Shown: positions 1 through 16,462 of the stretch, in pieces
Layout: each line of letters begins with the position of its first letter
Position numbering within the stretch: position 1 is the first letter of the stretch
Origin: a virus
DNA length: 64,000 nucleotides
Strand: one strand, 5' to 3'
Virus record (IMG/VR): IMGVR_UViG_3300040816_000831
The notes under the pieces: generated by a model
Seen by the model: the letters and a program-made list of their open reading frames with translations, nothing else
Told to the model about the DNA's origin: nothing
The model's database searches: none
Translations under genes and position numbers: made by a program

Positions 1-990
1 CAATATAAAATCTTTTGGTAGTTTCATAAGAGATAAAGCTTCTCTTACTGTTAAGTATCTATCTTCATCCGGATGAGTTAAGCACGTTGGCATATGTCCA
101 ACAAATGCTCCTATTTTATCTTTAGGAATCTCTGTAGTTTTTCTCATGATATTACCACCAGCTTTGAGCTTATGATATTGCCTATCGCATTTCTTTGCAA
201 CATTATCATATCCATTTTCTCTCATCCATTTAGCTACTTCTTTATATGTTGTTCTTTCTTCAATGTAGTCCATTGGGTTTGTTGTCTTTTCTATTTTATC
301 TTGAAATTCACTATGTGATATACCACCTTCTAATACTTCAAGAACATATCGATAATATGGTTCTTCAGAAGGTTTCTTTTCATTACAAAGAATTTGACTC
401 ATTGGGTCATCATCTTTTCTTTCAACTTCTCTTATATCATCAGCAATCATTGTAGGTCTTTCTAGTACATATTCAAATAATGGTACTTCATTACCTTTCC
501 AAAAGAAATAGAATGTTCTATCTCGTACTTGGCTGAGTCCATGTAGTATAGATTTTGTTTTAAAGATACTAAAAGTATATCCATTATCTTCTCCTATCTT
601 CCTCAATCTTCTTACAACGGGTTCTCCCATCTTACTTGCAAGCCTTGGTGCGTTCTCTCCCCAAAATACTTTTGGTTGTACTTCACTAAGTACATATTCA
701 GCAGATGTAAACATCCATTCGTTCATAGGATTATTACTTGCAGCTGATGGACTAAGTGAGCTGAGCCCTGCACATGGGCATACAGTATTAATCACATTAA
801 CTTTTTCTGTGTAACTCGCTCCCTCTGAGAGGTTCAAATATGGGACCTCATGGTTATAATGATTTAATAAGTGAGATTCATTAGCTTGAAAGCCTTCATA
901 TGTCATAATATACTTTGGTCTTTCTCCAAAGACATTTTCCATTGCTATTGTTTCTCCACCTATTAGTGGTACTATACTCGCATAACTCAT
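1..990 (-). CDS. C5 cytosine DNA methyltransferase-like protein (3' end runs off the window; absent from ORF track)
   Basis: Hand translation from ATG at 990 (ATGA overlap with upstream stop): MSYASIVPLIGGETIAM...TVCPCAGLS (motif IV PC)...FWGENAPRL (motif VI)...SQVRDRTFYF (motif VIII)...HPDEDRYLTVREALSLMKLP (motif IX-like). Motif I is degenerate. Confidence 0.8.
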   Translation of the reverse strand, partial: MSYASIVPLIGGETIAMENVFGERPKYIMTYEGFQANESHLLNHYNHEVPYLNLSEGASYTEKVNVINTVCPCAGLSSLSPSAASNNPMNEWMFTSAEYVLSEVQPKVFWGENAPRLASKMGEPVVRRLRKIGEDNGYTFSIFKTKSILHGLSQVRDRTFYFFWKGNEVPLFEYVLERPTMIADDIREVERKDDDPMSQILCNEKKPSEEPYYRYVLEVLEGGISHSEFQDKIEKTTNPMDYIEERTTYKEVAKWMRENGYDNVAKKCDRQYHKLKAGGNIMRKTTEIPKDKIGAFVGHMPTCLTHPDEDRYLTVREALSLMKLPKDFIL

Positions 991-1967
991 GCAAAAAACT
1001 CCTCTAGTCCAGCCTTTTCAATTCCATTCCAATATGGATAGAACTCTCTGGATAAATGTATTGATTGTGGTTTCTCCATATATTTAAAATCGAGCTTACC
1101 TTCTTTATTAAAGAGATGACCGGTCCATCTTTTGATACCGTATTCTTTCTCTATGTAATCGTTAAATTTATTTCTTGCATCATTTCTTTCTGACCAAGAA
1201 CCGTAAAATGGTTGTCCTTTATAATATCCTGATTGCGGTATTCTTCTACTTACATCTTCTATTGGAAGCAACTCATATATCTTTGCATTATACTTATGAG
1301 CTTCTTCAATATACCTATCAGCTAAATCTTCTATCTTTTGTCCTAGTCTAATTACATGATGTCTTATATCAATATTACCAAAATAGCATTCAAGCTCTTC
1401 ATAATCGTAAGGAATGTATTTATCAAATCCTTCGTTTAAAGCTCCATTTAAAGTTTTGAATGGAACACTGTTTACTGTCCAACCTGGTCGATACATGCAG
1501 ATGGAATGACTATCACCAATAACTATTTTAGAAGTTGGATTAGGATAGTCGATTCTTTCAGCTTCATTAAACATGCGTTCTAGATTTTTAAGGTCTACAT
1601 CATGCCATTCCGGTTGAACCTCTTTCTTAGCCGATTCCAGTTTTGATTTAACCATTTCGTGATACGGCGGGAAGTCGATTCCAATTGAAAAGACTCTGCC
1701 TTTGAACTTAGAAAAGTTGACAGTGTTCTTAACATAAGGAAAACCGTATACGCCACCAAACATATTAATTCCACCACTCCAATCAGTGCCGTGATAGACC
1801 CAAAGACTATCATAATCATTGTGGTCTTCAATTTCTCCACCGTAGTTAACATCGCAGTTTCCATATTTCTCCTTTATCATATCGCCATACATTACTCCTG
1901 CAGCTCCTCTATGAGAAGCAGCTCTCTTAGCTATTGGAATAAATGGACAATTAATTATATTTTTCAT
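987..1967 (-). CDS. Two-domain protein with C-terminal SGNH/GDSL hydrolase-like domain
   Basis: IVIGDSHS (block I), YFGNIDIRHH (block III-like), QSIHLS (block V-like); C-terminus LEEFFA; own promoter at 1975-2003. Confidence 0.55.
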   Translation of the reverse strand: MKNIINCPFIPIAKRAASHRGAAGVMYGDMIKEKYGNCDVNYGGEIEDHNDYDSLWVYHGTDWSGGINMFGGVYGFPYVKNTVNFSKFKGRVFSIGIDFPPYHEMVKSKLESAKKEVQPEWHDVDLKNLERMFNEAERIDYPNPTSKIVIGDSHSICMYRPGWTVNSVPFKTLNGALNEGFDKYIPYDYEELECYFGNIDIRHHVIRLGQKIEDLADRYIEEAHKYNAKIYELLPIEDVSRRIPQSGYYKGQPFYGSWSERNDARNKFNDYIEKEYGIKRWTGHLFNKEGKLDFKYMEKPQSIHLSREFYPYWNGIEKAGLEEFFA

Positions 1968-1974
1968 TAGATAT

Positions 1975-2003
1975 ATTATACCATACTTTTGTTCAAATGT
2001 AAA
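1975..2003 (-). promoter_or_regulatory. sigma70-type early promoter
   Basis: TTTACA-17 nt-TATAAT with TGG extended -10; same motif occurs ten times in the window. Confidence 0.8.
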
Positions 2004-2008
2004 CGTTT

Positions 2009-3073
2009 TTATTCAAAGAATTCACTAAGGGTATTAGTCTTTTGTACGCGCGCCACGCGTCTACGCGCGCATGCTCGCTCGTCTTCTCTTATCTGTAGGT
2101 ATACACCAAACTGACATGACAACACTTCAGTTCCGTAGTATTTAAGAGAATCTTGTTCATATTGAAATAATTTACTACCGTCTTTCTTATTTATATTGAA
2201 AGCTTTTGGATGAAATACAACATCTTTTGTTAATCCTATTTCATCTGAATTTTCTCTCATATAGTATATTGCTTCGTCATACAATTTCTTTGGAGCTTCT
2301 GGCCACATTAATTGTATTGTATACACAGCTCCTGGACCCGGCGATACAAATCTTTGGTCATGATGATACTTCATTTGTGGTAATACAGATGAAGAAGCAG
2401 CTCCATGGAATCCGTAATAATGTCCTATGCCAGGTTGTTCTCTTAAAAGAGTATAAATCTCTGACATATGATTACATTGTTGCATTCGTTCTAAGAAACC
2501 AGTATCTCTAAAAGAAGATACCCATTCACAAACATCAACTGCATGAAACTTTCTATCTGGTTCGTTATACTTTTCACGACAATAGTTTCTAGCAGCAGTT
2601 TGTATAGATGTGTGTAATTCTGTTGTTCCCCAAATTGGTTGCTTATTCTTTATTGCTTTATCTAAATTATTACGAACATATTGAATATAATCTTTATTTC
2701 CATTTGCTATTCTATCAAAATCAACAAAGACGTTATCTTCTCCTGAAGCAAGAAAATGAACTCCTCTTCCACCATAGAAATGAGATATAAAAGTATTACC
2801 TACAATATTCATTATTGTAGTATCTAGACTTGCTATCTCTTGACCAATAAATCTCATACGGTCATCAAGTGTAATTGTTGGATGAAAATATTCTACATCT
2901 TCGCCAAGACCAAAATCATTCTTGCCATGACGATTTACTGATTCATATTGTTCTTTTGAATATCCAAGTTGTATATTAGACCTTTCATTAACTTTATATA
3001 GAAACCAATTGAACTCTTTCATGAGTTCTTTATCGTAATTCGACCAATCGTAATTATATTTAGTACTTGACAC
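2009..3073 (-). CDS. aGPT-PPlase / 5-hmdU DNA kinase helical-domain family protein (HhH glycosylase-like base-hypermodification enzyme)
   Basis: PGIGHYYGF helix-hairpin-helix-like motif, SPGPGA, EVLSCQFGVY; these resemble the GxGxF...GPGA...ExxLCxxxKY pattern of the family; C-terminus LSEFFE. Confidence 0.6.
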   Translation of the reverse strand: MSSTKYNYDWSNYDKELMKEFNWFLYKVNERSNIQLGYSKEQYESVNRHGKNDFGLGEDVEYFHPTITLDDRMRFIGQEIASLDTTIMNIVGNTFISHFYGGRGVHFLASGEDNVFVDFDRIANGNKDYIQYVRNNLDKAIKNKQPIWGTTELHTSIQTAARNYCREKYNEPDRKFHAVDVCEWVSSFRDTGFLERMQQCNHMSEIYTLLREQPGIGHYYGFHGAASSSVLPQMKYHHDQRFVSPGPGAVYTIQLMWPEAPKKLYDEAIYYMRENSDEIGLTKDVVFHPKAFNINKKDGSKLFQYEQDSLKYYGTEVLSCQFGVYLQIREDERACARRRVARVQKTNTLSEFFE

Positions 3074-3473
3074 GTTCCTCGTTATCTCTCTTTAAATGAA
3101 CAATTGATATATCAGGACATCTTTTTTTAATCTCTTTGATTTGAATTGGGTCATCTTCGAAATGCATTTCTATTTCTACTCCCAAGTCTTTTAACATATT
3201 AATCATTTGTCCTTTAAAGATACCAGAAGCTTTTCTGCCATATAGTGGATTTTCTTTTACTCCATGAGTCACTTTATGATTTTTTAGTTTTCTTTCAAGT
3301 GGATTCATGTAAAGAGTATTATATATTCCTCTAGATTCTAGCATTTTTACTGTAGCTTCTCTATCAGCAAAAGGCCGCCCAGTAATGATGATGTCATCTT
3401 TACCGGGTCTTACGCCTGTGGTGCTTTCACCAAAATAGATTACTCCATCGATGTCAAACGAATTAATTTTCAT
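3060..3473 (-). CDS. HAD-superfamily phosphatase
   Basis: SFDIDGV (motif I), ITGR (II), K (III), HFEDD (IV); start taken at MKINSF. Confidence 0.8.
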   Translation of the reverse strand: MKINSFDIDGVIYFGESTTGVRPGKDDIIITGRPFADREATVKMLESRGIYNTLYMNPLERKLKNHKVTHGVKENPLYGRKASGIFKGQMINMLKDLGVEIEMHFEDDPIQIKEIKKRCPDISIVHLKRDNEERVKY

Positions 3474-4755
3474 AATCATTCTTCGCATCTTGGAAGGTGT
3501 GAGGCAAATCTGCTGCCTTCGGTCTATTCTCTTTGAGCTGTGGAGTAGTAATATCTGTCAATACTCTCCTAGCTAAAGCATCACATTCAAATTTGGCATC
3601 TTGAGTTTTGAGCTGTAATGGAGGAGTCTTTTGAGTCCATGCTGATGGTCCTCTTAAATATCCTACAATGCCCATCTCTGAAGCTACCTTACAAAATCTA
3701 ATTGCTGAAACAACAACTCCACCAGAGTTTGGAGAGTCTTGAACTGAAAGTCTAGCTGACATTTCATATCTTGCTCCTGCAAATCCATAAGCAACCATAT
3801 CAAAGTTAGCTATTTTATTATCAGATGAGATATAATCTCCACCTGGTTTTTGTTGAACAGTAAGAGATGGACCAGCAAATAATGTCATACCTGCAGTTGA
3901 TTCTCCTCTTACGCTGTTTTGTCCTTTTAAAACATTTTCTTTTGATACATGTTTGTTATGTAATCTATATTGTTTTGCCATATTCAAGAAGTCAGTATTT
4001 GCTGTTCTTCCTGTTCTTATATGCTCTTGTCCTTGTGTAGAACCAGCAGCCATATTCATTTGAATGTGTTGTGTTACCATTAAACCTGAATCTAACATAG
4101 CACCTTGTAGAACTTCTGACATTCTTGAAGCTCCCCAGGCTGACCTCATATCTGAACCAACAATTGTAAGTCCTGCATCTATGAATCTTTGTTCAGTTAT
4201 CATAGCATCTTCTGTTGAAATCAATGTCGGTATACAGTTTACGAAATGTATTCCTGCATCTAACGCAACATCAATCCAGTATTTAGAAGCTTCTTCTGAA
4301 CCAACTGGTAAATAGTTAATGAGTACATCTACATCATGATACTGTAGTAACTCAACAGTTCTTTCAAAAGATTCTGCTGGTACAGCTCCATTTACAAATG
4401 TGACTTCATCTGGATAATCATGCATGTGAGGAGCTATTCCGTCCATTTCTGGAGCTGAATAGACCATTGCATCATTATTTACAGCTGAACTATTTGATGT
4501 AGTTGTTATTTTTTCGACATGGTCCATAGCGCAATTAGGTTGAGCTCTTAAAGCTTTTGCTAATTTTTTATTTACTTTCCTTTTATCGATATCAAATCCA
4601 ATAACAAACTCGATGTCGTGTACTGAATATCCGCCGATATCTTCATACATTAGACCAATTTTGTCTTCTGGATTTTCGTTATAATATTGTACACCTTCCA
4701 CTAAAGACTTTGCACAACTTCCGACGCCGATTATTCCGGCTTTTATTTTTGACAT
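3463..4755 (-). CDS. ino1: myo-inositol-1-phosphate synthase-like protein
   Basis: GIIGVGSCA Rossmann motif, INYLPVGSEEA, FVNCIP, NTDFLNM, SDNK, QDSPNSGGVV, KTPP; SD AAGGAG. Confidence 0.85.
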   Translation of the reverse strand: MSKIKAGIIGVGSCAKSLVEGVQYYNENPEDKIGLMYEDIGGYSVHDIEFVIGFDIDKRKVNKKLAKALRAQPNCAMDHVEKITTTSNSSAVNNDAMVYSAPEMDGIAPHMHDYPDEVTFVNGAVPAESFERTVELLQYHDVDVLINYLPVGSEEASKYWIDVALDAGIHFVNCIPTLISTEDAMITEQRFIDAGLTIVGSDMRSAWGASRMSEVLQGAMLDSGLMVTQHIQMNMAAGSTQGQEHIRTGRTANTDFLNMAKQYRLHNKHVSKENVLKGQNSVRGESTAGMTLFAGPSLTVQQKPGGDYISSDNKIANFDMVAYGFAGARYEMSARLSVQDSPNSGGVVVSAIRFCKVASEMGIVGYLRGPSAWTQKTPPLQLKTQDAKFECDALARRVLTDITTPQLKENRPKAADLPHTFQDAKNDYEN

Positions 4756-4817
4756 ATTATTCTCCTTATATCAGTTTATTTGAGTGAGAAATTTGACTGG
4801 CGTACCAGAGTAGCTCA

Positions 4818-5123
4818 CTATATACTATTAGTTATAACACTTATCAGACCACTTCCAAGGATAATGACTGCTGCTGTGTTTAAAATTATCAATGCTCTAT
4901 CTTTCCAGATAAGAGCTACTATTAACCAACCGAATGTTCCAACTAAGGAAAACGCTTGGTCATAGAGAGCAAGGTCAGGATTAGACCTGCTTGCCATAGC
5001 AATTAAAAGAATAGCTGATGCTACCCATTTAATATACCAATCAATTGTATACTTAGGAGTTGCGCTCTTAAATATACGCTTTGAATTTTTTATTTCTTGT
5101 TCGTTAAATTTCGGTGAATTCAT
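4818..5123 (-). CDS. Small membrane protein with about three TM helices
   Basis: Three hydrophobic segments after DWYIKW; overlaps dCMP deaminase stop. Confidence 0.6.
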   Translation of the reverse strand: MNSPKFNEQEIKNSKRIFKSATPKYTIDWYIKWVASAILLIAMASRSNPDLALYDQAFSLVGTFGWLIVALIWKDRALIILNTAAVIILGSGLISVITNSI

Positions 5124-5544
5124 ATTTTACATTAGCCTCTTTAAATATTTCATGTGTTTTTTCTATTGCTTCTTTCCATCTATCTGGAGTATTTTCTGAA
5201 AGCGATACAACTCTAGATATTCCTGCTTGTATTATACCTAATGAGCAATGACCACAAACTGGTAAACCATAAATATATAATATAGAATCTTTTAAAGATA
5301 TTCCATTTTCTGCAGCATTATATATACAATTCATTTCTGCATGAACTACATATTGATACTTTGTTTCTCTATGATTATATCTTTCTTTACTATCTTCAAT
5401 ACCTTTAGGAAATCCATTATATCCTGTTGCTAATATTTTTCTATCTCTTACAGCAATTGCACCTATTTTTCTACTTGGGTCTTTACTCCATGTAGATATT
5501 TCACGAGCAATATCAAGAAATCTTTTATCCCACTTATTTAACAA
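5104..5544 (-). CDS. cd: dCMP deaminase
   Basis: SKDPSRKIGA, TGYNGFP, VHAEMN, PVCGHC zinc motifs; probable TTG start at 5544 after GAGAGG. Confidence 0.9.
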   Translation of the reverse strand: MLNKWDKRFLDIAREISTWSKDPSRKIGAIAVRDRKILATGYNGFPKGIEDSKERYNHRETKYQYVVHAEMNCIYNAAENGISLKDSILYIYGLPVCGHCSLGIIQAGISRVVSLSENTPDRWKEAIEKTHEIFKEANVKYEFTEI

Positions 5545-6211
5545 GGTCAAAGTGCCTCTCATACACATGTAAGTTTTGTACTTGCCAATAAATTTTACCA
5601 CCACTTTTAAGTGGATGACCATTATAGTATAAATCTTTTTCTAGTTTTTCTAATACGTATTTTTGCCAAGCGTAATCATTTCGATAACCATATACAACGT
5701 CATTACTTCTCATTTGAACTACACAATGTAATTGTTCATCTCTTATATAATATGTAACAGCATTTGTACAAATAAAATCATTCTTACCATCTTCTTTAAA
5801 TTCGCGCCAGATACTTGGTCTTTGATATACCATTGAAGCTCTACGAGAATCTGGATTAATTTCACTTAGTTCTTTTACTACTTGATTATATTGTCTATGA
5901 AATTTTTTACTGAATATAAGATGACCATAATTAGAATTGATTTCACCATAATCATTTGCAGAATATTCCCATGCTGCTGGCGACTTACCATATATTTCAG
6001 CAAGTTTATTAATATTAGTTGACCTAGAATTATACCATTCTATTTCAGCATCAATATATTCTTGATTGGGTTTACCAAAAATTGATGGCTTATCTGCTAG
6101 AAAAGACGCAGCAAATATTTCGATTGTTTTACAACCAGTCTTATCATCGGTAAACTCTTTGTTTTTAAGTTTATCGATAAACGTATTTGCGATATCTTTA
6201 GTCTTCAACAT
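5534..6211 (-). CDS. gp42: dCMP hydroxymethylase (T4 gp42 type)
   Basis: DKTGCKTIEI, EINSNYG, NPDSRRA, DFICTNAV, MRSNDVVYGYRNDYAWQKYVL, LHVYERHF closely match T4 gp42, including the Asp of RND that specifies dCMP over dUMP. Confidence 0.9.
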   Translation of the reverse strand: MLKTKDIANTFIDKLKNKEFTDDKTGCKTIEIFAASFLADKPSIFGKPNQEYIDAEIEWYNSRSTNINKLAEIYGKSPAAWEYSANDYGEINSNYGHLIFSKKFHRQYNQVVKELSEINPDSRRASMVYQRPSIWREFKEDGKNDFICTNAVTYYIRDEQLHCVVQMRSNDVVYGYRNDYAWQKYVLEKLEKDLYYNGHPLKSGGKIYWQVQNLHVYERHFDLVK

Positions 6212-6527
6212 TACTTACCTTTTTGTTGAACATATCTCTTGTTGGGTCTTGGCCTTCCATTTTACCTCGAGCATAAGCAACAGCAAAAGAACAATAGTTA
6301 ATCATATCTTTATAAGTATCTTCAATACTTTCGAAGTTTGGGTCATCGGCTGATTCAAGCAATGAAGTTGCTCTCATCATTTTACCAAGAATAATATCAT
6401 GAATCGTATCAATGCCACGTCTATAATGCATGGCTTGGACTACTGTTGATTCAGAACTTTGATAGTCTTGGGATTTTTTAGTTTGTAGTTCTGCGCATTC
6501 TTGCAGGACTCTTAAGCTTTCTTTCAT
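6198..6527 (-). CDS. Nucleotide modification-associated domain (Nmad1/DUF1599-like) all-helical protein
   Basis: KKSQDY and ESIEDTYKDMINYC motifs; coupled to gp42. Confidence 0.65.
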   Translation of the reverse strand: MKESLRVLQECAELQTKKSQDYQSSESTVVQAMHYRRGIDTIHDIILGKMMRATSLLESADDPNFESIEDTYKDMINYCSFAVAYARGKMEGQDPTRDMFNKKVSNVED

Positions 6528-6556
6528 AATGTCTCCATAATTAATTAGATATATCT

Positions 6557-6585
6557 ATTATATCATACTTTTGGTTAAATGTAAA
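6557..6585 (-). promoter_or_regulatory. sigma70-type early promoter heading the modification cluster
   Basis: TTTACA-17-TATAAT with TGA extended -10. Confidence 0.8.
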
Positions 6586-6592
6586 CTGTTTT

Positions 6593-7015
6593 TTAATATA
6601 TTTTACTACTTGTAAATTTTCGTAGTTCATCACCTTTACCTTTAAAGGTTGTTATCATTTTCATTTTACTTATTGGCCAACCACACATTACTCTTCCATC
6701 GCGTGTAGTTATTTCTTTTGTATCATTTCTATCAATACACTCCCATAATATTGCATCAGGGGAGTTATCATATTCAACAAAGAAAAGACGGTCTACTGAT
6801 TTACATTTTGGTACTTGATTTTTCCAAGCTGTATTTACAGTAAAGTAACCAAAGGGATGTCTATTTTGGCATTTAACTTCTGCTGTTTCATCAAGTATCA
6901 TACCATCTTTTTTGCTATCATATTTGTCAGTACTTTGTTCACCACTAAAGTAATCAAAAACTAATTGTTCGGCTAAAAAGCCCATCTTTTCTTTATTTGT
7001 TTTATATGTATTCAT
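6593..7015 (-). CDS. Putative PD-(D/E)xK nuclease
   Basis: GFLAE...KKDG...AEVKCQ spacing fits E...D...ExK. Confidence 0.45.
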   Translation of the reverse strand: MNTYKTNKEKMGFLAEQLVFDYFSGEQSTDKYDSKKDGMILDETAEVKCQNRHPFGYFTVNTAWKNQVPKCKSVDRLFFVEYDNSPDAILWECIDRNDTKEITTRDGRVMCGWPISKMKMITTFKGKGDELRKFTSSKIY

Positions 7016-7446
7016 TATCTACTAAGAGATTTATTGTATATAATACCTTCTGATATTAATACTTCTCTATTCCACATGTGTCCTTTTTCAGTGTCATCTT
7101 TTGACTGACCAAAATAAGGAACTGCATGACAATCTTTTATCATTTGTTGATTAACACTAAAATTAGAATTACCTATAAAAAGTTCACCAAGTATTCTGCC
7201 AAACTTTCCTTTATCATGAGATTGTAATTGAACCTCTTGGTCTTTTAGTATTTTCTTTAAGTGAGCTTTTGAAGCTAAGCCATAAAACTTTTCTTCTAAA
7301 TCTCTAGTTCTAGATTCTGGAGTATCAATACCCATCATTCTAACTCTTTGTTTTTTGTAGACCATTCCAAATCCTAAATCGATATCTACATCAACTGTAT
7401 CTCCATCTACGACTCTTGTGACCTTTACGTTATATCTATAGCTCAT
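7015..7446 (-). CDS. Thermonuclease (SNase) family nuclease
   Basis: VVDGDTV, RMMGIDTPES, GKFGRILG. Confidence 0.9.
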   Translation of the reverse strand: MSYRYNVKVTRVVDGDTVDVDIDLGFGMVYKKQRVRMMGIDTPESRTRDLEEKFYGLASKAHLKKILKDQEVQLQSHDKGKFGRILGELFIGNSNFSVNQQMIKDCHAVPYFGQSKDDTEKGHMWNREVLISEGIIYNKSLSR

Positions 7447-7709
7447 TAGTCTTCTCCTATTACTGCTTTAATGTGGTCAGCGTCTATAATAACAGCTGCG
7501 TTACCATCAACATTTACTGCCATTGACTTTGACCAATCTAAAAAGACTCTTTGTCCTGTCATGACTTTATCTAAAGCTCCAGTACTAACTGCTAAAACTA
7601 ATCCTGGTTTACTTGCGTTGTCAATATTTTCAGTAAGTATAATACCACCGGCCGATTGACTTTCTTTTTGTACTTCTGTTACGAGTACGTTGTTTCCTAA
7701 CATTTTCAT
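7446..7709 (-). CDS. groES: GroES-like co-chaperonin
   Basis: MLGNNVLV...SAGGIIL...GLVLAVSTG...IKAVI. Confidence 0.8.
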   Translation of the reverse strand: MKMLGNNVLVTEVQKESQSAGGIILTENIDNASKPGLVLAVSTGALDKVMTGQRVFLDWSKSMAVNVDGNAAVIIDADHIKAVIGED

Positions 7710-7719
7710 AATATCTCTC

Positions 7720-8232
7720 CTATTTGTAGAATATGTGGTTATTTATTATAACAGTTTGATTGAGCGAATCTGCCCAATAAGGAAGGACTCTATCATTGTG
7801 ATAATGTGTTGACCCCTCTGTAATATCCGGATATGCTCCTTGTATGACATCTCTTGCTATGTGTAATGATTTAAGCCATGTTGGACTATCTTCTGGGTCG
7901 TCTGATTTGCCATCACAAAACCAACTAAATTGGCATTGATTACGCATAGGAATCATTTCGCCTAACCAGTTTTCTTTCCACTTAGCTTGGTAAATAACTC
8001 CACAAACATCCGTTGGATAATTTGGATGTTTTGTTCTATTTAGAACAACATGAGCAACAGCTACTTTTCCAGCTAATGGTTGATTACCAGCTTCAAAGTA
8101 AATGTTTTGAGCCATACAATAAATATCATTGTTGGCGTCTGAAGCTTCAACCTTTGGAACAGCAAACATTACTGCACCTAGCATGAAACCAAATAACATT
8201 CCATATAGAAATGCTTTATATTCATCTGTCAT
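7720..8232 (-). CDS. SleB-like cell wall hydrolase with N-terminal TM/signal segment
   Basis: CMAQNIYFEA, AVAHVVLNR, CQFSW, THYH, HIFYK. Confidence 0.9.
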   Translation of the reverse strand: MTDEYKAFLYGMLFGFMLGAVMFAVPKVEASDANNDIYCMAQNIYFEAGNQPLAGKVAVAHVVLNRTKHPNYPTDVCGVIYQAKWKENWLGEMIPMRNQCQFSWFCDGKSDDPEDSPTWLKSLHIARDVIQGAYPDITEGSTHYHNDRVLPYWADSLNQTVIINNHIFYK

Positions 8233-9146
8233 ATATTATTTTTAAACACGAATTCAATAGCTCGTGCTGCCTCCTTTTCTAAATCTCTTTTATTATACCA
8301 CCCACCAGTATCAGTATCTAAATCTCTACAGATATATTCGATTTCTTTTGGTGTAATTGGATAACCTTTACTATGAGCATTACCAGCAGTTGTTAACATG
8401 ATTTGATACATTTTTGCATACCAACCAGTTCCACTGATACCTTTATATTCGTCAACTTGTTTTTTATTAACAAAAGGACAATCACGATATGATGTCCACG
8501 TATAATTTGTATTGTTCAATTCATTTCTTTTTCTTTCAAGTAACGCTTTTTGTATTGCTTCTGGAAAACGATCGAACATTGTTTGATTAGGTTTAACGTA
8601 TGGATATTGTTCCATAAGTTTATGTGGGTTCATAATATCTCCATCGTGAGAAAATATGAAATTAAAACTGTTTTTGTATTTAGCAGGAACATAATACATT
8701 CTGCTTAAGTCTTTGGTTTGAGCATCAGCAATATCGCCAATCTCTTTGTTTAAAGCATACCAAAAATGCTTAATGTCTTCTTTATCAACGAATTCTGTTA
8801 ATGGAAAGACGAGTCTAAACTTTGGTGATTCAACTGTAGATGATGCTGTTGAATAACATACATAACGATACTTATCATACTTTGATTCAATATCTTTCAT
8901 ATCGCCTTCATAATCATCAATATCAAGAATACCAAAGCCGGCCCAACCAACAACATTATCATTTGCACGAGTAGTACTAGTTTGATATATTGCTGGACTT
9001 AAAAGCGGAGCATCTTTCTTTGTAGGATATTTAGTCGACTCAGAAAGCTTATAGAGAATAGCCTCGAACTCGTCGAAACTATTATAATCCATACGCTTAT
9101 CTGTTTTGTTATCGTATATATTATCGAATATTGTGCAACTTACCAT
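8229..9146 (-). CDS. AEP-superfamily primase/primase-polymerase-like protein
   Basis: ILDIDD (DxD), YSTASS...PKFRLVFPL, KDLSRMYYVP; helical C-terminal domain. Confidence 0.6.
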   Translation of the reverse strand: MVSCTIFDNIYDNKTDKRMDYNSFDEFEAILYKLSESTKYPTKKDAPLLSPAIYQTSTTRANDNVVGWAGFGILDIDDYEGDMKDIESKYDKYRYVCYSTASSTVESPKFRLVFPLTEFVDKEDIKHFWYALNKEIGDIADAQTKDLSRMYYVPAKYKNSFNFIFSHDGDIMNPHKLMEQYPYVKPNQTMFDRFPEAIQKALLERKRNELNNTNYTWTSYRDCPFVNKKQVDEYKGISGTGWYAKMYQIMLTTAGNAHSKGYPITPKEIEYICRDLDTDTGGWYNKRDLEKEAARAIEFVFKNNI

Positions 9147-9534
9147 GATTTCCTTCGTGACTTGGTCCTTCCCAACCTTCTGGTTTGATTAGGTCTGGTA
9201 ATCCTAGTGGATTAGGTCTTTCAGGTTTTACTCCTACTGTTTTATTTAAGTTTGCTTTTAGAACTTCATCCCAAGCTTTATATGGGTCAATACCAAATGC
9301 ATCAAGTGTTCCAATAGCAACAACACATATATCGATTAAACCATCGACAATTTCTTCTGCATCGTTATTGGTTAATGCTGCTTCAGTTTCCATAAGTTCT
9401 TCTCTTATAAATTTGATTCTAAATCCAAGATAAGCACGTAGCTTTTCAGCGTTGTCTTTATTATCATGAATCCATTTATGAACTCCATACTTATACTGCA
9501 TGTCTTGAATATCTTTTATCCAGTTTTGGCTCAT
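9121..9534 (-). CDS. MazG/PRA-PH-like all-alpha NTP pyrophosphohydrolase
   Basis: IREELMETE...EEIVDGLIDI, ANLNK, KPEGW. Confidence 0.8.
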   Translation of the reverse strand: MSQNWIKDIQDMQYKYGVHKWIHDNKDNAEKLRAYLGFRIKFIREELMETEAALTNNDAEEIVDGLIDICVVAIGTLDAFGIDPYKAWDEVLKANLNKTVGVKPERPNPLGLPDLIKPEGWEGPSHEGNHGKLHNIR

Positions 9535-9806
9535 GTTATGATTCCTGATTTTGCTGTTACGATTCCACTATCCATTTGTCTTACCTGATCGACTAATTCA
9601 TCGACTGGATCGACCATGAATACAACAAAGTTTTTAGGAATAGTGATTCCTTCTTTTGCTTTTGTATAAGCCATGAAAGGCATAAATCCAATTTTGCCTT
9701 CTCCAGCTGGTATTAAAGAATAGCCATCGGTAATAGTAATGTCACTGCCATTATCTACTACTTTGCCAATTACTTCCTCTCCTGAGGATAATCTTACTAG
9801 TTTCAT
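9531..9806 (-). CDS. Conserved T4-like hypothetical protein (Sm-like fold likely)
   Basis: KLVRLSSGEEVIG N-terminus; GGAG before second Met; paralog-like to 24817-25215. Confidence 0.6.
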   Translation of the reverse strand: MKLVRLSSGEEVIGKVVDNGSDITITDGYSLIPAGEGKIGFMPFMAYTKAKEGITIPKNFVVFMVDPVDELVDQVRQMDSGIVTAKSGIIT

Positions 9807-9826
9807 ATTTTTCTCCATAGGTATAT

Positions 9827-9855
9827 ATTATACCATACTTTTAGTAGTTTGTAAA
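9827..9855 (-). promoter_or_regulatory. sigma70-type early promoter
   Basis: TTTACA-17-TATAAT. Confidence 0.8.
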
Positions 9856-9858
9856 CGA

Positions 9859-10431
9859 TTAATCCCAATTAATTGCAGGTATTTGTCCATAAAATCCTTG
9901 AGTTGCTTTTAATTGAGTAGGAAAATATTTAGAAAGCTTCTCAATATCTCCATGATCGTAATTTAATTTAGGCAATCTTGCCTCTTTCTTTTGAACTATA
10001 ACAGATACATCATATCCATAAGTTCTCACAGCTGCATCTGAACAGTCAAATCCAGCTAATATAAGATTATATAATAATAATCCTGCATTCCATAATGAAA
10101 CATGTCCACCAACAATATTGTGTCTAAGTGGTGGAACAGATATTGCAAGAATTCCATTTGTATCTATAAGATGAAATATCTTACTTAAAAAATGATGTAC
10201 ATTCAATTGATGTTCAAGTGTATGTGCACACCAAACACAATCAAAATTTCTATCAAAGTCGATTGTATTAAAATCACCTTGATAATCTGATTCGAGTATA
10301 TCTGTTGTATAAACTTTTTTACCTCTTTCTTTAAACATATTAGAAAACTTTCCATCACCTGCGCCAACATCAAGTACTGAATTAAATTGAAAATCTGTTA
10401 CTAACTTTTCAAAGGTGAGTAAACTTCTCAT
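9859..10431 (-). CDS. Class I SAM-dependent methyltransferase (small-molecule type)
   Basis: VLDVGAGDG, HTLEH, ISVPP; ATGA overlap with gp43 stop. Confidence 0.85.
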   Translation of the reverse strand: MRSLLTFEKLVTDFQFNSVLDVGAGDGKFSNMFKERGKKVYTTDILESDYQGDFNTIDFDRNFDCVWCAHTLEHQLNVHHFLSKIFHLIDTNGILAISVPPLRHNIVGGHVSLWNAGLLLYNLILAGFDCSDAAVRTYGYDVSVIVQKKEARLPKLNYDHGDIEKLSKYFPTQLKATQGFYGQIPAINWD

Positions 10432-12959
10432 CCGAAAAAATCCTCCAGGCTTGCAACTTCTTTCGAAGTCCAACCTACTGCTTCCAAGACCGGTTCAATA
10501 GGATCGAGGAATGTTTTTTGAAACTGTGTTTCATGGTCGATGTATTTTCTTAAGCCAAACTCATCTGGAAGATAAGATGGGAAAGCAATTACATTTTCAT
10601 GAATTGAATTTGGTTGACGAAGATATATGAACTTAATCTTTTCGCCATTGTTTATAAGTTCGTATTTCTTTTTAAGCTGATTGTCTTCAATTAGTTTATT
10701 GTAAAGAATAGCTCCACGAACATGTATAGGCGTTCCTTTTTTATAGAGGGTATTTCTATCTTGGAACTTTTTAACTTGAGTCACTCCGCGCGGAAATGCA
10801 ATCTGGTCAGGTTCAAGAGTTTTGAAATAGTTCTTAAACTGTTCGATAGCTTGTTGAACTGTATTTTCATCTTCTTTCATTATGACTTTGAATATATTTT
10901 TAAGAGCATCACGACATGGTTCAGGTGTAGAAGACTTAATTGCTTCAATACCCATAATCTTAAGCTTTGGCTCGGCATATCTCACGCCTTCGTTATCATG
11001 TACATTCATAATATATCTTTTCTTTGCAGTCCAAAGCGCACGGTCAGCGATTGCTTCACGTTTCATAACCATACGATTATCTACTCCACCAAGATACTTA
11101 TACAATTGCTCATAAGACTTTTCAAGCTCTGGTTCAAGCGCTTCACTAGCAACTTTATCTAGAAAGTCGATTGTATTTTCAGGTTTGAATTTTTGTACAA
11201 AGTCGTTTAAGCATACATACAGCGAGTCTGTGTCGATAGCAATAACATAGTCTTTCCATTTTTCAGGTTTGAGCACTCTATTGAGATAGGTGTTAAGCGA
11301 ATATTCGGCCCATCGAATTGTAAGTTGTCCGGTGAGGGTAATTGCTTCTGCGATTCTCTGGTCAAAGAATCGAAAATAGCGATTGCCAAGAGCGCCATAC
11401 AAACTGTTAAGAAGAATCTTAATAGCCATTTGTCTGTTTTCGGCAATTGCAATATCTCTTTCAATTTGATATAATTTTTGTTTGTCATTTTTATCTACCT
11501 TTTCTTTTTCTTTTTGAGCGTTAATCATTTCTTGTTTAATACCAACACGCTCTTTATACATCTCATCGATAATGAATGGTATTATACCTGGCTTATCTAC
11601 ATTAAAATATTGTCCATTAGCTGCAAGAGCTTTACCTTTATTAGGAGCGATACGATGTTCGCTTATAGCACTATCAATATCGAATTGAGCAATCTCTCCA
11701 TTAGCAATCGTTTCAGGCGACATATTGTATTGCATAATGATTGATGGATAGAGAGAGTTTAAGTCAAAAGAAACAACGTTATCATGTATTCCTACTTGTG
11801 GGTCTTTAACAAAGCCACCTGGATAGTTAGACTTTACTTTATCTTCAACGAAAGGTATAGCAATATTGTTTGCAAATAATCTGCGATAGATAATCGTATC
11901 CCATATCATTGTAGTACCGAATGTATCGTTATAGTTAACGCCAGCTTTATATGCCATTGTCATACAAAGAGTAATCAATCCAAGCTTATCTTCGATTTTG
12001 TCGACAAGCTCAACGTCTTTGATATTATAGTCAATAAACTTTTGGTGATTATGCTTGTAAAGAGTATGAAGATTCGAATACTCATCATAAGATAGTTTCT
12101 TTTCTCCTAACACGACATGAGCAATGTTATCAAGTTTATAAGATTCTTGTGGTCCATAAGAATAACCAAACTTCTTAAATAGGTCGAGGTAATCAAGTTG
12201 AGATATACCTTTAAGTTCATAAGCAGTTTGAGTCCTTCCCATCTTAGTTACGTCTTGTCTATCAATCATTCCCCAAGGACTGAGTCTTTTTACGTAAGCT
12301 TCTCCAAGCATACGATTGATTCTATTCACAAGGTATGGAATATCAAAGAACCTTGAATTCCAGCCAGTCACGACATCAGGACAATATTGTTGAGATGACC
12401 AATGAGTAATAAAATTAATAAGCAAGTCATCTTCACGGTCAAACTTACGATATACTACCATGTGGTCTTTCATATAAGATTTGTCAGTATCATAATCACC
12501 TAAGCCCCAGACATAATAAGTATTGCCAATATTGTTTTTCATACAAATGGCTGTAATCTTATGGTCGGCTTTTTCAGGCTCAGGGAATCCATCGTCAGAA
12601 GCAACTTCAATATCAATTGTTGATACGTTGATTTTGTTTCGATCGAATTCGATATTACCAGGATAGTAATCATTAATGAATGCTGGAACGTACTTTGTGT
12701 TTCCATATATCTTTTTACCAGATACGCCTTTATTAGCTTGAACATACTCGTTAGCAGTTCTCATGGATTCGAACCTTTTGCCAGCATTTGCTACACCTAC
12801 AGGATTTCCATCAAGCGATTTCCACTTGGTAGGAAGATTGGTAGATGTAAAAAGGATTGGTTCGTATTTGACTTTCTTTTCAATTCGTCTTCCGTGGTCA
12901 TATCCTCGTAAGAGAATCATATTACCATATCGAGACACATTAGTATAGAATTTCATCAT
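10428..12959 (-). CDS. gp43: Family B DNA polymerase
   Basis: DIEV exonuclease motif, SFDLNSLYPS, KILLNSLYGALG, DTDS, C-terminal SLEDFFG. Confidence 0.98.
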   Translation of the reverse strand: MMKFYTNVSRYGNMILLRGYDHGRRIEKKVKYEPILFTSTNLPTKWKSLDGNPVGVANAGKRFESMRTANEYVQANKGVSGKKIYGNTKYVPAFINDYYPGNIEFDRNKINVSTIDIEVASDDGFPEPEKADHKITAICMKNNIGNTYYVWGLGDYDTDKSYMKDHMVVYRKFDREDDLLINFITHWSSQQYCPDVVTGWNSRFFDIPYLVNRINRMLGEAYVKRLSPWGMIDRQDVTKMGRTQTAYELKGISQLDYLDLFKKFGYSYGPQESYKLDNIAHVVLGEKKLSYDEYSNLHTLYKHNHQKFIDYNIKDVELVDKIEDKLGLITLCMTMAYKAGVNYNDTFGTTMIWDTIIYRRLFANNIAIPFVEDKVKSNYPGGFVKDPQVGIHDNVVSFDLNSLYPSIIMQYNMSPETIANGEIAQFDIDSAISEHRIAPNKGKALAANGQYFNVDKPGIIPFIIDEMYKERVGIKQEMINAQKEKEKVDKNDKQKLYQIERDIAIAENRQMAIKILLNSLYGALGNRYFRFFDQRIAEAITLTGQLTIRWAEYSLNTYLNRVLKPEKWKDYVIAIDTDSLYVCLNDFVQKFKPENTIDFLDKVASEALEPELEKSYEQLYKYLGGVDNRMVMKREAIADRALWTAKKRYIMNVHDNEGVRYAEPKLKIMGIEAIKSSTPEPCRDALKNIFKVIMKEDENTVQQAIEQFKNYFKTLEPDQIAFPRGVTQVKKFQDRNTLYKKGTPIHVRGAILYNKLIEDNQLKKKYELINNGEKIKFIYLRQPNSIHENVIAFPSYLPDEFGLRKYIDHETQFQKTFLDPIEPVLEAVGWTSKEVASLEDFFG

Positions 12960-13263: not shown

Positions 13264-13719
13264 TTACCCTTTCAAGTATTCTTTCTTCTTTGATGCCCCA
13301 GCAGACCCTAATTCGATCTTTCTAGGACGCTTCTCTTCTGGAAGTTCTACTCTGGCATACACCACTAGTATTCCATCCTTCAAATCAGCACCGTCTATTA
13401 CAACAAATTCTGAGAGTCGAAATGATTTCTCAAATTTGCGGGACGATATACCTTTATATGCGTATTCACGCTCAGCTGGCTCCACCTCTCCTTTGACTTT
13501 CAATATGCCATCTTTAAGTTGGATATCAATATCCTTTTCCTTAAATCCAGCAATTGCAAGCTCGATGAGAAATTTCTCATCATCGATTTTCACAACGTTA
13601 TGTGGTGGATAGTTATCAGTTCCAGACCTAGCACTTTGATGAATCCTTTCTAAGTCTTCAAACAATGTGTCAAATCCGACAAAAAGTGAACGCGGTACGT
13701 TCAAAGTATTTCTTACCAT
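13264..13719 (-). CDS. hsp20: Small heat shock protein (IbpA-like)
   Basis: NYPPHNV, IELAIAGF, KGISSRKF, LKDGIL alpha-crystallin motifs. Confidence 0.95.
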   Translation of the reverse strand: MVRNTLNVPRSLFVGFDTLFEDLERIHQSARSGTDNYPPHNVVKIDDEKFLIELAIAGFKEKDIDIQLKDGILKVKGEVEPAEREYAYKGISSRKFEKSFRLSEFVVIDGADLKDGILVVYARVELPEEKRPRKIELGSAGASKKKEYLKG

Positions 13720-13822: not shown

Positions 13823-13912
13823 TTATAAGTAGATTTTTACTACTTTATTTAGTCTGCCTGCTTTCATAAATTTATGAAAATTCTTCCAGGCCTTTTTAAT
13901 TTTTTTCTCCAT
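13823..13912 (-). CDS. Possible 29-aa basic peptide
   Basis: MEKKIKKAWKNFHKFMKAGRLNKVVKIYL overlapping the end of regA. Confidence 0.35.
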   Translation of the reverse strand: MEKKIKKAWKNFHKFMKAGRLNKVVKIYL

Positions 13913-14330
13913 TATTAGAGTTCCCTATGTTATACTTAGGGCATAGTTCCCATTGAGTTTTTTCCTTAAAAGGAATCACCTTAATTTGTCTCAATGGTGC
14001 TAAATCTTTAGAAGATTCAGGCTTCATAATAGTTACTAAACCCCAGTCGGCTAGTAATGTTGCAATTGTATTTCTACGTTGTACATCATTCTCAAGTAAA
14101 CTAGATGGTTTTCCATCTAGTAAAAATAGTTCTTTAAAGTGAACTATAAAATATCTACCTTGCTTATGTAATATATGGCAAGATTGAAAAAGCTTCTGGT
14201 CTTTCCTAGAAGCTACACCTATACGTGTTAATGTTTCACGTATCTTTAAAAAGTCGTCTGGTTCGTTTAGAGAGACTTCTAACATAGAGTTAGGAGTCCA
14301 ATCTGTAATTTGTATGTTATTGTTTTCCAC
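13896..14330 (-). CDS. regA: Translational repressor RegA
   Basis: DDFLKIRETLTRIGVAS, QSCHILHKQGRYFIVHFKELF. Confidence 0.97.
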   Translation of the reverse strand: MENNNIQITDWTPNSMLEVSLNEPDDFLKIRETLTRIGVASRKDQKLFQSCHILHKQGRYFIVHFKELFLLDGKPSSLLENDVQRRNTIATLLADWGLVTIMKPESSKDLAPLRQIKVIPFKEKTQWELCPKYNIGNSNNGEKN

Positions 14331-14694
14331 CTTTATAAATCCTTTGTTTCAATTGTTCAATATTTTCATTACTCATTAATGATAATGCAGATTTAGCCTT
14401 TTCGTCACTATACCCATAATTTTCTTTGATGAGTTCTAGATGGTCAATATCACTGGCCTTAATCCACTTAGACCATCTTTTCTTCTTTCTAATTATATTT
14501 ATAAGAAAATCGAACTGAACGCGATGGTCTAGGTGATGATGTTTATTCATTTCATTAGCATACAATACAGTGTCTTTAAAGAAAGAAAGACCACGATTTA
14601 TAATGAAAGGATTGTATTCTTTCTCAGCAATGTCATCAACCATGATATCTTTCTTGGTTTCATTAATTGCTTTTAAGTAATCGAATGGACTCAT
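14317..14694 (-). CDS. gp62: Clamp loader small subunit
   Basis: YNPFIINRGLS, ANEMN, YGYS..KA; position between gp44 and regA. Confidence 0.92.
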   Translation of the reverse strand: MSPFDYLKAINETKKDIMVDDIAEKEYNPFIINRGLSFFKDTVLYANEMNKHHHLDHRVQFDFLINIIRKKKRWSKWIKASDIDHLELIKENYGYSDEKAKSALSLMSNENIEQLKQRIYKGGKQ

Positions 14695-14891
14695 TGTTTA
14701 TCTATGAACGTTTGAGCGTCTGATTTTTTGGTGAATGTTCTTTCAGAAATAATAACATTTGCAGAATTGAATTGAACTGCTCTATACTGTTCTTTTTGAC
14801 TTTCAAAATGAACGGTTACTATATCCCATCTATTAGTCGTTTCTTGTTCTACGATTTCGCCACCAAATGGCAAGTTTACGAATTTTTTCAT
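14691..14891 (-). CDS. Hypothetical protein
   Basis: 66-aa ORF overlapping both neighbours by ATGA. Confidence 0.6.
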   Translation of the reverse strand: MKKFVNLPFGGEIVEQETTNRWDIVTVHFESQKEQYRAVQFNSANVIISERTFTKKSDAQTFIDKQ

Positions 14892-15823
14892 TTGAATTTT
14901 ACTCCTGCCATTACTTCAGTTAAACATGCAACCATATTCAATTCATGGTCTGCAACAAAACTGTTTTTATATTGATAATCAGCCAGAATAAGTACCAATT
15001 GCGGTATTGATTGAGGCTCTACGTATTCATTCATGTTATCGTATACTTTACGAAACATTGATGCTGGTTCTATATCGATATTATCAGCAACCCATTGTCT
15101 CATTTTACGAAAGTCTTTTATTTTAAGAGCATTCATAAGAGTATCAAGAGCAATATCATTAGCATTGACTAATATACCACTATCGATTTTACCAAAGTTT
15201 GAATATCTTTGTAGTTCATTAAGTGTTCTTCTGAAATCTGGAAAGTATTTCATAATCAGTTCAGCAATAACAGCTGGTTCTGAATTTATACTTTCGACTG
15301 ATAGTATCTGTTGAACTCTTTGCATAAACTGACCAGCAAGAGCTTCTTTCTCTTTCTTTGGCATCGCAAATTCGATAACACTGGTTCTTGAATGTAGTGG
15401 CTCGATTATACGATTCTTGAAATTACAAGTAAGTATAAACCTACAGTTAGATGAAAACTCTTCGATAAATCCACGCAAAGCTGGTTGAGTGGATTGTGGA
15501 TTAAGGTAATCCGCTTCGTCCAAGATGACGACTTTGAGGCCGCCTGATAAGGAAACGGACGAAGCGAATTGTTTGATTTTGTTTCTTAGAGTATCAATAC
15601 CTGATTCTTCTGAACCATTAATGATTATATAGTCTAAGTCAAGCTCGTTGCAAAGTGCTCTAGCAACTGTGGTCTTTCCTGTACCAGCAGTACCAGTGAA
15701 CATCATATTCTGAAGTTCGCCTTTGTCTAAAACATTTTGGAATATCTTTTTAAGGTCTAGTGATAATACACATTCCTCTACTTTTCTTGGGCGGTACTTT
15801 TCCACCCATAGGAACTCTTCCAT
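14888..15823 (-). CDS. gp44: Clamp loader ATPase subunit
   Basis: LWVEKYRP, GTAGTGKT, ILDEAD, LHSR. Confidence 0.97.
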   Translation of the reverse strand: MEEFLWVEKYRPRKVEECVLSLDLKKIFQNVLDKGELQNMMFTGTAGTGKTTVARALCNELDLDYIIINGSEESGIDTLRNKIKQFASSVSLSGGLKVVILDEADYLNPQSTQPALRGFIEEFSSNCRFILTCNFKNRIIEPLHSRTSVIEFAMPKKEKEALAGQFMQRVQQILSVESINSEPAVIAELIMKYFPDFRRTLNELQRYSNFGKIDSGILVNANDIALDTLMNALKIKDFRKMRQWVADNIDIEPASMFRKVYDNMNEYVEPQSIPQLVLILADYQYKNSFVADHELNMVACLTEVMAGVKFK

Positions 15824-16080
15824 TATAGTACCTCCCAACCTTCTACGGTATCTAACCTAAAAGACCTCCATGCATTTTTATCCAATGACCATACTGGAAA
15901 TGCTTCCATTCCTGTCGCTGAATAATCTATTGATATTGTTACACCAGCCTCTTTTAGAGTTTCTGGTTTTAGAGTACACGGCATTATTCTTAGTTCGCCT
16001 GTATCTATTTTTTTGAATGTGACTGTGACTTGCCCTTTTTGTAAAGCCTCGAGCAATTTGGCTTTTTCATTGTTGTTCAT
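15823..16080 (-). CDS. WYL-like/SH3 beta-barrel phage protein
   Basis: VTVTFKK..G.LRIMPCTL...AWRSFR; start at MNNNEK after AGGA. Confidence 0.65.
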   Translation of the reverse strand: MNNNEKAKLLEALQKGQVTVTFKKIDTGELRIMPCTLKPETLKEAGVTISIDYSATGMEAFPVWSLDKNAWRSFRLDTVEGWEVL

Positions 16081-16102
16081 AATATATCCTATAATAAAAT
16101 TT

Positions 16103-16121
16103 GAGGGGACTTTCACCCCTC
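16103..16121 (-). terminator. Stem-loop, probable terminator
   Basis: GAGGGG-TGAAAGT-CCCCTC followed by AAATTTT. Confidence 0.5.
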
Positions 16122-16126
16122 CCGTA

Positions 16127-16454: not shown

Positions 16455-16462
16455 TATTTATA
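16455..16462 (-). promoter_or_regulatory. T4 late promoter
   Basis: TATAAATA overlapping gp45 stop. Confidence 0.6.

Follow-up and report, generated by a model that had tools for sequence, protein, structure and literature searches.

The 64,000-nucleotide stretch of viral DNA analysed here (IMG/VR record IMGVR_UViG_3300040816_000831; the whole stretch is called the window below) is from an uncultured marine T4-like myovirus and opens on a putative DNA modification gene cluster. Three enzymes of this cluster, a protein with an SGNH/GDSL fold (ORF987; open reading frames, ORFs, are named by their first coordinate), a predicted AADT-like protein (ORF2009) and a C5-cytosine-methyltransferase (MTase)-like protein, end in the same type of short peptide as the DNA polymerase gp43 and the late sigma factor gp55 of the same phage, the MTase-like protein doing so in its intact relatives. 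In T4 the C-terminal peptides of gp43, gp55 and gp33 are established binding epitopes for the sliding clamp gp45 and are interchangeable among the three proteins (PMC2988020). A preliminary description made from the DNA letters had read the shared tail as a sign that the enzymes ride the sliding clamp and have new DNA as their substrate, and the comparative evidence gathered here supports this reading: it is likely that ORF987, ORF2009 and the MTase-like enzyme are gp45 clamp clients acting behind the replication fork. The motif, its position and its conservation are established here, as is the fact that it is limited to DNA-acting enzymes and co-varies with the tail of the polymerase; from these data we infer that gp45 is the partner and that tethering couples modification to replication.

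Translation of the window gives the C-termini ASLEDFFG for gp43, AGLEEFFA for ORF987, NTLSEFFE for ORF2009 and EKLELFM for gp55, in exact agreement with the four ends given in the preliminary description, whose span 987-2032 comprises ORF 987-1967 together with the stop and the seven tail codons (2009-2032) of ORF 2009-3073. The motif class on the cluster enzymes, gp43 and gp55 is (S/T)L-x-(D/E)-F-(F/M/L), and it stands at the C-terminal extremity. Among the 59 minus-strand ORFs of at least 60 amino acids in the window (20,353 residues), L..F[FLMIY] falls within the last seven residues of these four alone. The pattern occurs 12 times in all 20,353 residues, four times within the last seven where 0.07 is expected (Poisson P ~9e-7), and three of the four occurrences of L.[DE]FF are terminal (P ~1e-7). 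The tail codons are CTA GAG GAG TTT TTT in ORF987, CTT AGT GAA TTC TTT in ORF2009 and CTG GAG GAT TTT TTC in gp43, and since the Leu, Glu and Phe codons differ among these three LxxFF tails, they do not stem from a recent DNA copy. Loose hydrophobic C-terminal patterns are admittedly common ([LIM]..[FLMY][FLMYI].{0,2}$ fits 15 of 278 T4 ORFs and is thus unspecific, so that only lineage-specific motifs are usable), which might suggest that the resemblance is due to chance or to recent copying of the 3' end of gp43; this explanation is extremely improbable, being ruled out by the window statistics (P ~1e-6 to 1e-7), by the codon differences, and by conservation of the tail over hundreds of diverged homologues.

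A different alternative regards the peptide as the by-product of a nucleotide signal, CTN GAG GAN TTT TTT NNN TGA, in which a Shine-Dalgarno word (GAGGA), a U-rich spacer and an ATGA overlap are combined. The tail of ORF987 (GAG GAG TTT TTT GCA TGA) does overlap the start of the MTase-like gene, that of gp43 (GAG GAT TTT TTC GGA TGA) overlaps an ATG of the next ORF, and a Shine-Dalgarno-like word is found in the tail codons of 65 of 74 ORF987 homologues. The peptide is kept, however, where such a word is missing (9/74 ORF987, 48/65 ORF2009, 68/68 MTase and 15/26 gp43 homologues), synonymous variation in the tail is free (six Leu codons, GAA/GAG, TTT/TTC), ORF2009 is followed by a 41-nt spacer, and the other tail classes described below (SLF, LLEF, VNLLSMM, LDFLF) encode no Shine-Dalgarno sequence. 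Tails free of the word and free synonymous change lead us to reject this explanation, which we hold to be very improbable. The tail codons 987-1010 and 10428-10451 nevertheless contain GAGGA and an ATGA stop/start overlap, and the same bases therefore serve translational coupling as well.

ORF987 (987..1967, minus strand) encodes 326 amino acids (aa) composed of an alpha/beta N-terminal domain and an SGNH/GDSL fold (aa 140-314), to which a short linker attaches the tail GLEEFFA (codons 990-1010). No Pfam family was matched by this protein. The fold is seen in Foldseek (3p94, E 4e-5) and in VIA alignments with Z 11-12 and a root-mean-square deviation (rmsd) of ~3 over ~155 aa (140-313), and the invariant residues G151-D152-S153-H154, G197-N198 and H304 correspond to the block I GDS serine, the block III Asn and the block V His. 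T4 beta-glucosyltransferase is a weak match (Pfam E 0.087; Foldseek 1j39, E 2e-3, TM 0.29). ORF2009 (2009..3073, minus strand) encodes a 354-aa AADT/aGPT-Pplase-like protein with a DNA-glycosylase fold and the tail TLSEFFE (codons 2012-2032). It matches PF18723 (HMUDK_hel) with 45 bits against a cut-off of 25 and has no P-loop. Its closest structure is 8z2n, which is PUGT, a 5-phosphomethyl-dU glycinyltransferase from phage PaMx11 (VIA: Z 10.6 and rmsd 4.1 across 221 aligned aa), followed by helix-hairpin-helix DNA glycosylases with Z 6-8.6; PUGT was raised only by VIA re-alignment, as Foldseek gave no match at E <=0.001, and a profile of ORF2009 homologues found no match among sequences in the Protein Data Bank. 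Members of the AADT superfamily have a conserved catalytic Cys with a Glu nearby (PMC8989533), and E316, C320 and Q321 are invariant across 42 ORF2009 homologues, compared within the family only. Because of the PF18723 match and the structural matches to PUGT and the helix-hairpin-helix glycosylases, ORF2009 is predicted to be a base-flipping, DNA-acting enzyme like the amino-acid:DNA-transferases (AADT, formerly aGPT-Pplase), and the enzyme labels of the preliminary description hold for both proteins. In the AlphaFold2 (AF2) models the predicted local distance difference test (pLDDT) score is 88 for ORF987, falling below 50 over residues 318-326, and 91 for ORF2009, with low values over the last ~10 aa; in both models the final ~10 residues, which include a one-turn helix, score <50-60. 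As modelled, the tail is built like a short linear docking motif behind a flexible linker.

The C5-cytosine-methyltransferase-like gene (1..990, minus strand) is cut by the window edge and is not broken; the window holds the first 330 aa of a protein that has 395-412 aa in relatives. It matches PF00145 with 51.8 bits (cut-off 22) and TIGR00675 with 33.7 bits, which is below the cut-off of 100.65. The preliminary description had suggested looking for a tail on the missing C-terminus, and such a tail is present. In a related viral contig (locus L003) the MTase matches that of the window with 100% identity along the 330 residues they share and continues to 395 aa with the end SLQLTDFML, relatives end in LQLTDFM(L/V), and related forms are found in 67 of 68 loci. 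Aeromonas phage 44RR2.8t has a single 795-aa fusion protein, ORF233c (L001 6001-8388; end SLDGLFAI), that joins an ORF987 homologue to an ORF2009 homologue, and the two activities are therefore linked; a sodium:solute symporter gene adjoins ORF233c.

Lack of conservation of the tails among homologues was named in the preliminary description as a finding that would speak against its reading. Database homologues, counted among the matches listed, number at least 120 for ORF987 (52-90% identical) and at least 120 for ORF2009 (38-92% identical), and the tail is kept in essentially all of them, down to 38-52% identity. Among the 79 ORF987 relatives whose domain end is intact, 78 have a T4-type tail, the single exception stopping at the domain boundary. 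The linker of 3-25 residues varies in length and sequence, and the segment from the last conserved domain motif to the C-terminus (12-35 residues in ORF987 relatives, 11-41 in ORF2009 relatives) is not conserved in sequence. In a sample of 80 IMG/VR loci taken from related viral contigs around ORF987 homologues, the strict tail was found in 74/74 members of the ORF987 family, in 61/65 of the ORF2009 family (65/65 with a looser pattern), and at 26/26 gp43 ends, and the MTase family has a tail in 67/68. The 14 other neighbouring families, with more than 500 ORFs and including all nucleotide-level cluster enzymes, gave 0-1 strict tails per family.

Distant relatives of ORF2009 have other ends, for example LLEF, LIVF and TLF, and a further 80 loci around such relatives were collected and the polymerases located in the same contigs. 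Within each lineage the enzyme tails are alike, and they are like the polymerase tail wherever a polymerase was found, so that tail classes such as LKxF, [LI]IEF, SLF and FDI change with the polymerase across lineages. In G008, a complete 153-kb genome with gp45, the polymerase ends in SLEDFFG, and the ORF987-like, ORF2009-like and MTase-like proteins in ENFFS, SSFFD and SSYFQ. In three further lineages the ends of polymerase, ORF987-like and ORF2009-like protein are SLESFFA, SLNSFFE and TLNDFIG (G005), SSLKAFF, ISLKNF and NLSKYF (G004), and KTIIEF, KPLIEF and SQLIVF (G001, 359 kb). The split-polymerase lineage (L100-L159) has STSLF or ASALF on the C-terminal part of the polymerase, TSLF, NSLF or GLF on the ORF987-like protein, and NSLF, ALF or TLF on the ORF2009-like protein. 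In L098/L104, where the polymerase was not found, the ORF987-like protein ends in LLDF or LLEF, the ORF2009-like protein in LLEF and the MTase-like protein in LLSF or LLEF. The polymerase of Aeromonas phages 44RR2.8t and 25 ends in LFDMFDI, next to the SLDGLFAI of the 44RR2.8t fusion and the TLELFDI of the phage 25 homologue. Where the polymerase has no hydrophobic tail (lineage L133-L153, polymerase end EIIKEKATI), the enzymes are likewise tail-less. When the polymerase tails of eight lineages were permuted, the observed score of 220 compared with 121 +/- 26 and was reached by 28 of 40,320 permutations, several of which merely exchange equivalent lineages. The motif thus appears to evolve together with that of the polymerase, which would indicate the same binding site.

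The covariation also bears on the possibility that a host or phage protease reads the hydrophobic C-terminus as a tag for degradation or turnover, by which the abundance of the enzymes is timed. Hydrophobic C-terminal residues are typical of protease tags; a change in step with the polymerase tail in each lineage would not be expected of a host-protease tag, nor would its presence on a replicative polymerase or a late sigma factor, and there is very little chance that this is the explanation.

Some side observations were made on these lineages. The AADT-like protein of lineages with a tail-less polymerase (L146 9944-11407; L124 9923-11473) has an extra C-terminal domain of 135-155 aa in place of linker and tail, which has no Pfam match and may be an alternative way of holding DNA. 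In Aeromonas phage 25 (L002 3776-5957) a tail-less UDP-galactopyranose mutase homologue adjoins a 358-aa protein ending in SCLDLIMA, after which comes the ORF987 homologue; the 358-aa protein has no Pfam match and, going by its end, may be another tail-marked DNA-acting enzyme.

The specificity of the motif was examined in two complete gene sets. The strict pattern fits five of the 232 ORFs of G008. Four of these are gp43 and the three enzymes; the fifth is a baseplate protein, in which the matching end lies inside the Pfam domain and fold. In T4 the pattern L[DE][FLM][LFM] near the end fits exactly three of 278 ORFs: gp43 (ASLDFLFG), gp55 (SLDFLYEAND), and a 115-aa ORF at 149193-149540 (TLDFLL), which from its position and size is taken to be gp33.

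The same arrangement recurs with another motif in phage ViI (NC_015296), in which the gp45 clamp and loader genes adjoin the modification genes. The ViI DNA polymerase (orf00236) has the C-terminus RRVNLLSMMGKKG. Three modification enzymes share its type of end: gp160 (aG/PT-PPlase1; PMC5889632) has the C-terminus GSVNLLDRLKKPE, also quoted as SVNLLDRLKKPE; gp243 (5-hydroxymethyldeoxyuridine (5-hmdU) DNA kinase, 5-HMUDK; PMC5889632) has SSVSLLGLMRKA, also quoted as SVSLLGLMRKA; and gp247 (aG/PT-PPlase2 in PMC5889632, AADT, the serine transferase of PMC8989533) has TSVNLMSLLKR. A VNLLxxM-type end is present in only five of the 214 ViI ORFs, these four and Vi01_049c (L203 1856-2068), a 70-aa Cys-rich protein of phrog_4789 with the C-terminus KVNLLSLMRK, whose end makes it a candidate for a small protein partner of the clamp, perhaps one similar to gp33. 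In papers on the ViI enzymes (PMC5889632 and PMC8989533 among them) the clamp is not mentioned, and in the literature on the clamp together with hypermodification, aGPT-Pplase or 5-hmdU DNA kinase no prior description was found, subscription papers being outside the scope. The modification enzymes would constitute a new client class for a known docking motif, which is seen across several phage lineages. We propose, with moderate confidence, a general rule: in phages with their own replisome, polymer-level hypermodification enzymes would be sliding-clamp clients by means of the lineage-specific C-terminal peptide of the polymerase.

Several observations weigh against the clamp-client proposal. 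The T4 alpha-glucosyltransferase, beta-glucosyltransferase and dam methylase have no tail, nor do the second ViI kinase (gp67) and the ViI pyridoxal phosphate (PLP) decarboxylase (gp226), and some lineages of the same enzyme families are tail-less. As no clamp was present when ViI hypermodification was reconstituted in vitro (PMC5889632, PMC8989533), catalysis does not depend on the tail, which is expected to affect targeting and rate. An interaction of T4 alpha-glucosyltransferase with gp45, by which hydroxymethylcytosine would be modified right after synthesis, was proposed (Sommer 2004, as cited in PMC6024577), but could be reproduced neither in vitro nor in vivo (PMC13216743 / 10.64898/2025.12.06.692756), so clamp coupling of modification is not universal. 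As the T4 enzyme is tail-less, the dispute is not directly relevant to the present enzymes; the enzymes in PMC13216743 were tagged at the C-terminus, which would not be an appropriate design for the tail-bearing enzymes described here.

Finally, the contigs of the SLF-type and [LI]IEF-type lineages yielded no phage clamp gene; searches of the SLF, [LI]IEF and LKxF contigs for gp45 (protein, PF02916) and beta-clamp (PF00712) gave none, a negative of little weight, these contigs being mostly fragments, 19-50% complete. In the SLF-type and [LI]IEF-type contigs the tail is thus common to polymerase and enzymes where neither clamp gene was detected, which is what might be seen if the tail docked on a common partner other than gp45, such as another replisome protein or a modification-complex scaffold, to which the polymerase would bind too. 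We consider this unlikely. The gp43 peptide of T4 and RB69 is a gp45 epitope (PMC2988020; 1b8h), and the polymerase and clamp of the window are full-length homologues; gp55 also carries the tail, and clamp binding is the sole known use of the tail in gp55; most contigs in which no clamp gene was seen are 19-50% complete; and another partner fits poorly with a tail on both gp43 and gp55 and with lineage-specific co-evolution. The split-polymerase tails STSLF, TSLF and NSLF, as (S/T/N)(S/A)LF, resemble the bacterial beta-clamp motif QL(S/D)LF, and to judge from this likeness the phages of that lineage may use the host clamp.

Within the window cluster, docking on gp45 as proposed agrees with the division of the genes: the DNA-acting enzymes have the tail, and the nucleotide- and metabolite-level enzymes at 3060-6527 do not. 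The latter, all on the minus strand, are a HAD-like protein (3060-3488), an inositol-3-phosphate-synthase homologue (3463-4755; TIGR03450, 193 bits, below cut-off), DUF6552 (4818-5123), a deoxycytidine monophosphate (dCMP) deaminase (5104-5622), a gp42-type dCMP hydroxymethylase with a thymidylate synthase (TS) fold (5534-6211), and DUF1599 (6198-6527), the HAD-like protein, DUF6552, the deaminase and DUF1599 being assigned by Pfam/NCBIfam. The families of this region show 0-1 tails among 38-63 homologues each. Since the gp42-type enzyme is 53% identical to T4 gp42, the RNDYAWQ stretch included, the precursor base is probably 5-hydroxymethylcytosine (5-hmC) and not 5-hydroxymethyluracil (5-hmU), and the modified base is probably derived from 5-hmC rather than from thymidine. 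Enzymes of the AADT superfamily have as partner a P-loop 5-hm-pyrimidine DNA kinase, from which their phosphorylated substrate comes; neither a P-loop kinase (in Pfam searches) nor a T4-type glucosyltransferase was found among the ORFs of 1-10473. The gene content suggests that the cluster makes an unusual 5-hmC hypermodification, possibly one bearing a cyclitol.

The window genes are all on the minus strand, with a G+C content of ~34%, and a T4-type replication module is followed by structural genes. A megablast search of 1-7000 against phage records gave no match, so there is no near-identical phage record. The DNA polymerase gp43 (10428-12959, 843 aa; phrog_262, 1030 bits; tail SLEDFFG, codons 10431-10451) is 46-52% identical to marine T4-like polymerases (52% to Phage C48C1, ~46% to marine cyanomyoviruses). 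The sliding clamp gp45 (16458-17129, 223 aa) matches phrog_223 (E 6e-73) and PF09116, and matches RB69 gp45 (1b77/1b8h, E 1e-23) and T4 gp45 (1czd) over its full length. The loader region (14317-15838) consists of gp62 (14317-14694, PF16790 Phage_clamp_A), a small ORF, and gp44 (14888-15838, PF21328 Gp44_lid and AAA); RegA (13896-14330), gp46, gp47 and UvsW are also in the replication region. The late sigma factor gp55 (24083-24658, 191 aa; tail KLELFM, codons 24086-24103) is 36% identical to T4 gp55 (E 3e-23) and serves as an internal positive control for a clamp-binding tail. Between the modification cluster and gp45 are also a staphylococcal-nuclease homologue (7015-7446), a cell-wall hydrolase (Hydrolase_2, 7720-8232), an Hsp20 homologue (13264-13719) and a WYL_2 protein (15823-16155). 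The ORF listed at 9859-10473 with a TTG start is a class I S-adenosylmethionine (SAM) methyltransferase (PF13489), whose real start is more likely the ATG that overlaps the gp43 stop (MRSLLTFEKLV...).

From these data the following course of events may be envisaged. Clamp loader gp44/62 would put gp45 trimers, each with three peptide-binding sites, on primer ends. Clamps traveling with the polymerase or left behind by it would recruit the modifying enzymes via their tails, the tail peptide sitting in the hydrophobic pocket of gp45 as the gp43 peptide does in the RB69 gp45-peptide complex (1b8h). The enzymes would thereby be concentrated on new DNA at or behind the fork, and the fresh hydroxymethyl-pyrimidine, probably 5-hmC provided through the gp42-type enzyme, would be turned promptly and completely into the finished hypermodified base, immediately behind the fork.

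The proposal bears on how hypermodifying phages shield nascent DNA quickly enough, both from nucleases of the host and from the phages' own, which attack unmodified DNA. The sole earlier proposal of clamp coupling, that for T4 alpha-glucosyltransferase, is now disputed, and a docking peptide on three enzyme families provides a testable mechanism; the ViI gp160, gp243 and gp247 enzymes, already purified and assayed and with the same pattern, should aid such tests. In interaction assays, a C-terminal tag on an enzyme of this kind may cover the docking site. The tail sorts the enzymes of a cluster by substrate, those with it acting on DNA and those lacking it on nucleotides or the donor molecule, and it offers a search handle for DNA-modifying enzymes in T4-like phages, Ackermannviridae and jumbo phages. 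If the proposal is true, ending like the polymerase would be a marker readable from sequence alone, for example for the SGNH-fold protein, the repurposed C5-MTase, Vi01_049c and phage 25 p227nc, hypermodification would be coupled to replication, and the clamp-binding code of each phage would be defined.

Among known systems, the gp43, gp55 and gp33 epitopes of T4 and RB69 resemble the present tails in their place at the C-terminal extremity, in the flexible, divergent linker, and in the hydrophobic/acidic core (S/T)L(D/E)F(L/F); gp55 likewise has a divergent linker that leads to a conserved epitope of hydrophobic and acidic character (PMC2988020). In both cases the motif is on the polymerase and the late sigma factor of the same phage, and gp45 and gp44/62 are encoded. 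The difference lies in the carriers, which are DNA base-modifying enzymes here and replication or transcription proteins there. The proposal for T4 alpha-glucosyltransferase is alike in that a modifying enzyme would be held at the fork by gp45, the evidence being a pull-down in that case and a conserved, co-varying motif in this one. With the ViI enzymes there is a likeness both in family, ORF2009 being in the same PF18723/AADT superfamily, and in the sharing of a motif with their own polymerase; the motif itself differs (VNLLxxM(K/R)K in ViI, LxEFF here), as does the chemistry, with 5-hmdU and P-loop kinases in ViI and, in the window cluster, a dCMP hydroxymethylase of the gp42 type with no P-loop DNA kinase in evidence. 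Phage T-dioxygenases depend on a homologue of ParB that is cytidine triphosphate (CTP)-dependent and encoded beside the enzyme (PMC13229309). There too a phage DNA-modifying enzyme needs a ring- or clamp-type partner that loads on DNA, with the differences that the partner is not the replicative clamp and that no common C-terminal peptide is involved. In eukaryotes DNMT1 binds PCNA by a PIP box, an N-terminal or internal motif (QxxLxxFF). That system differs in its cellular clamp, in the N-terminal or internal position of the motif, and in performing maintenance methylation instead of hypermodification, and it is the closest general parallel to the enzymes proposed here, as a modifying enzyme is brought to new DNA by a short clamp-binding peptide.

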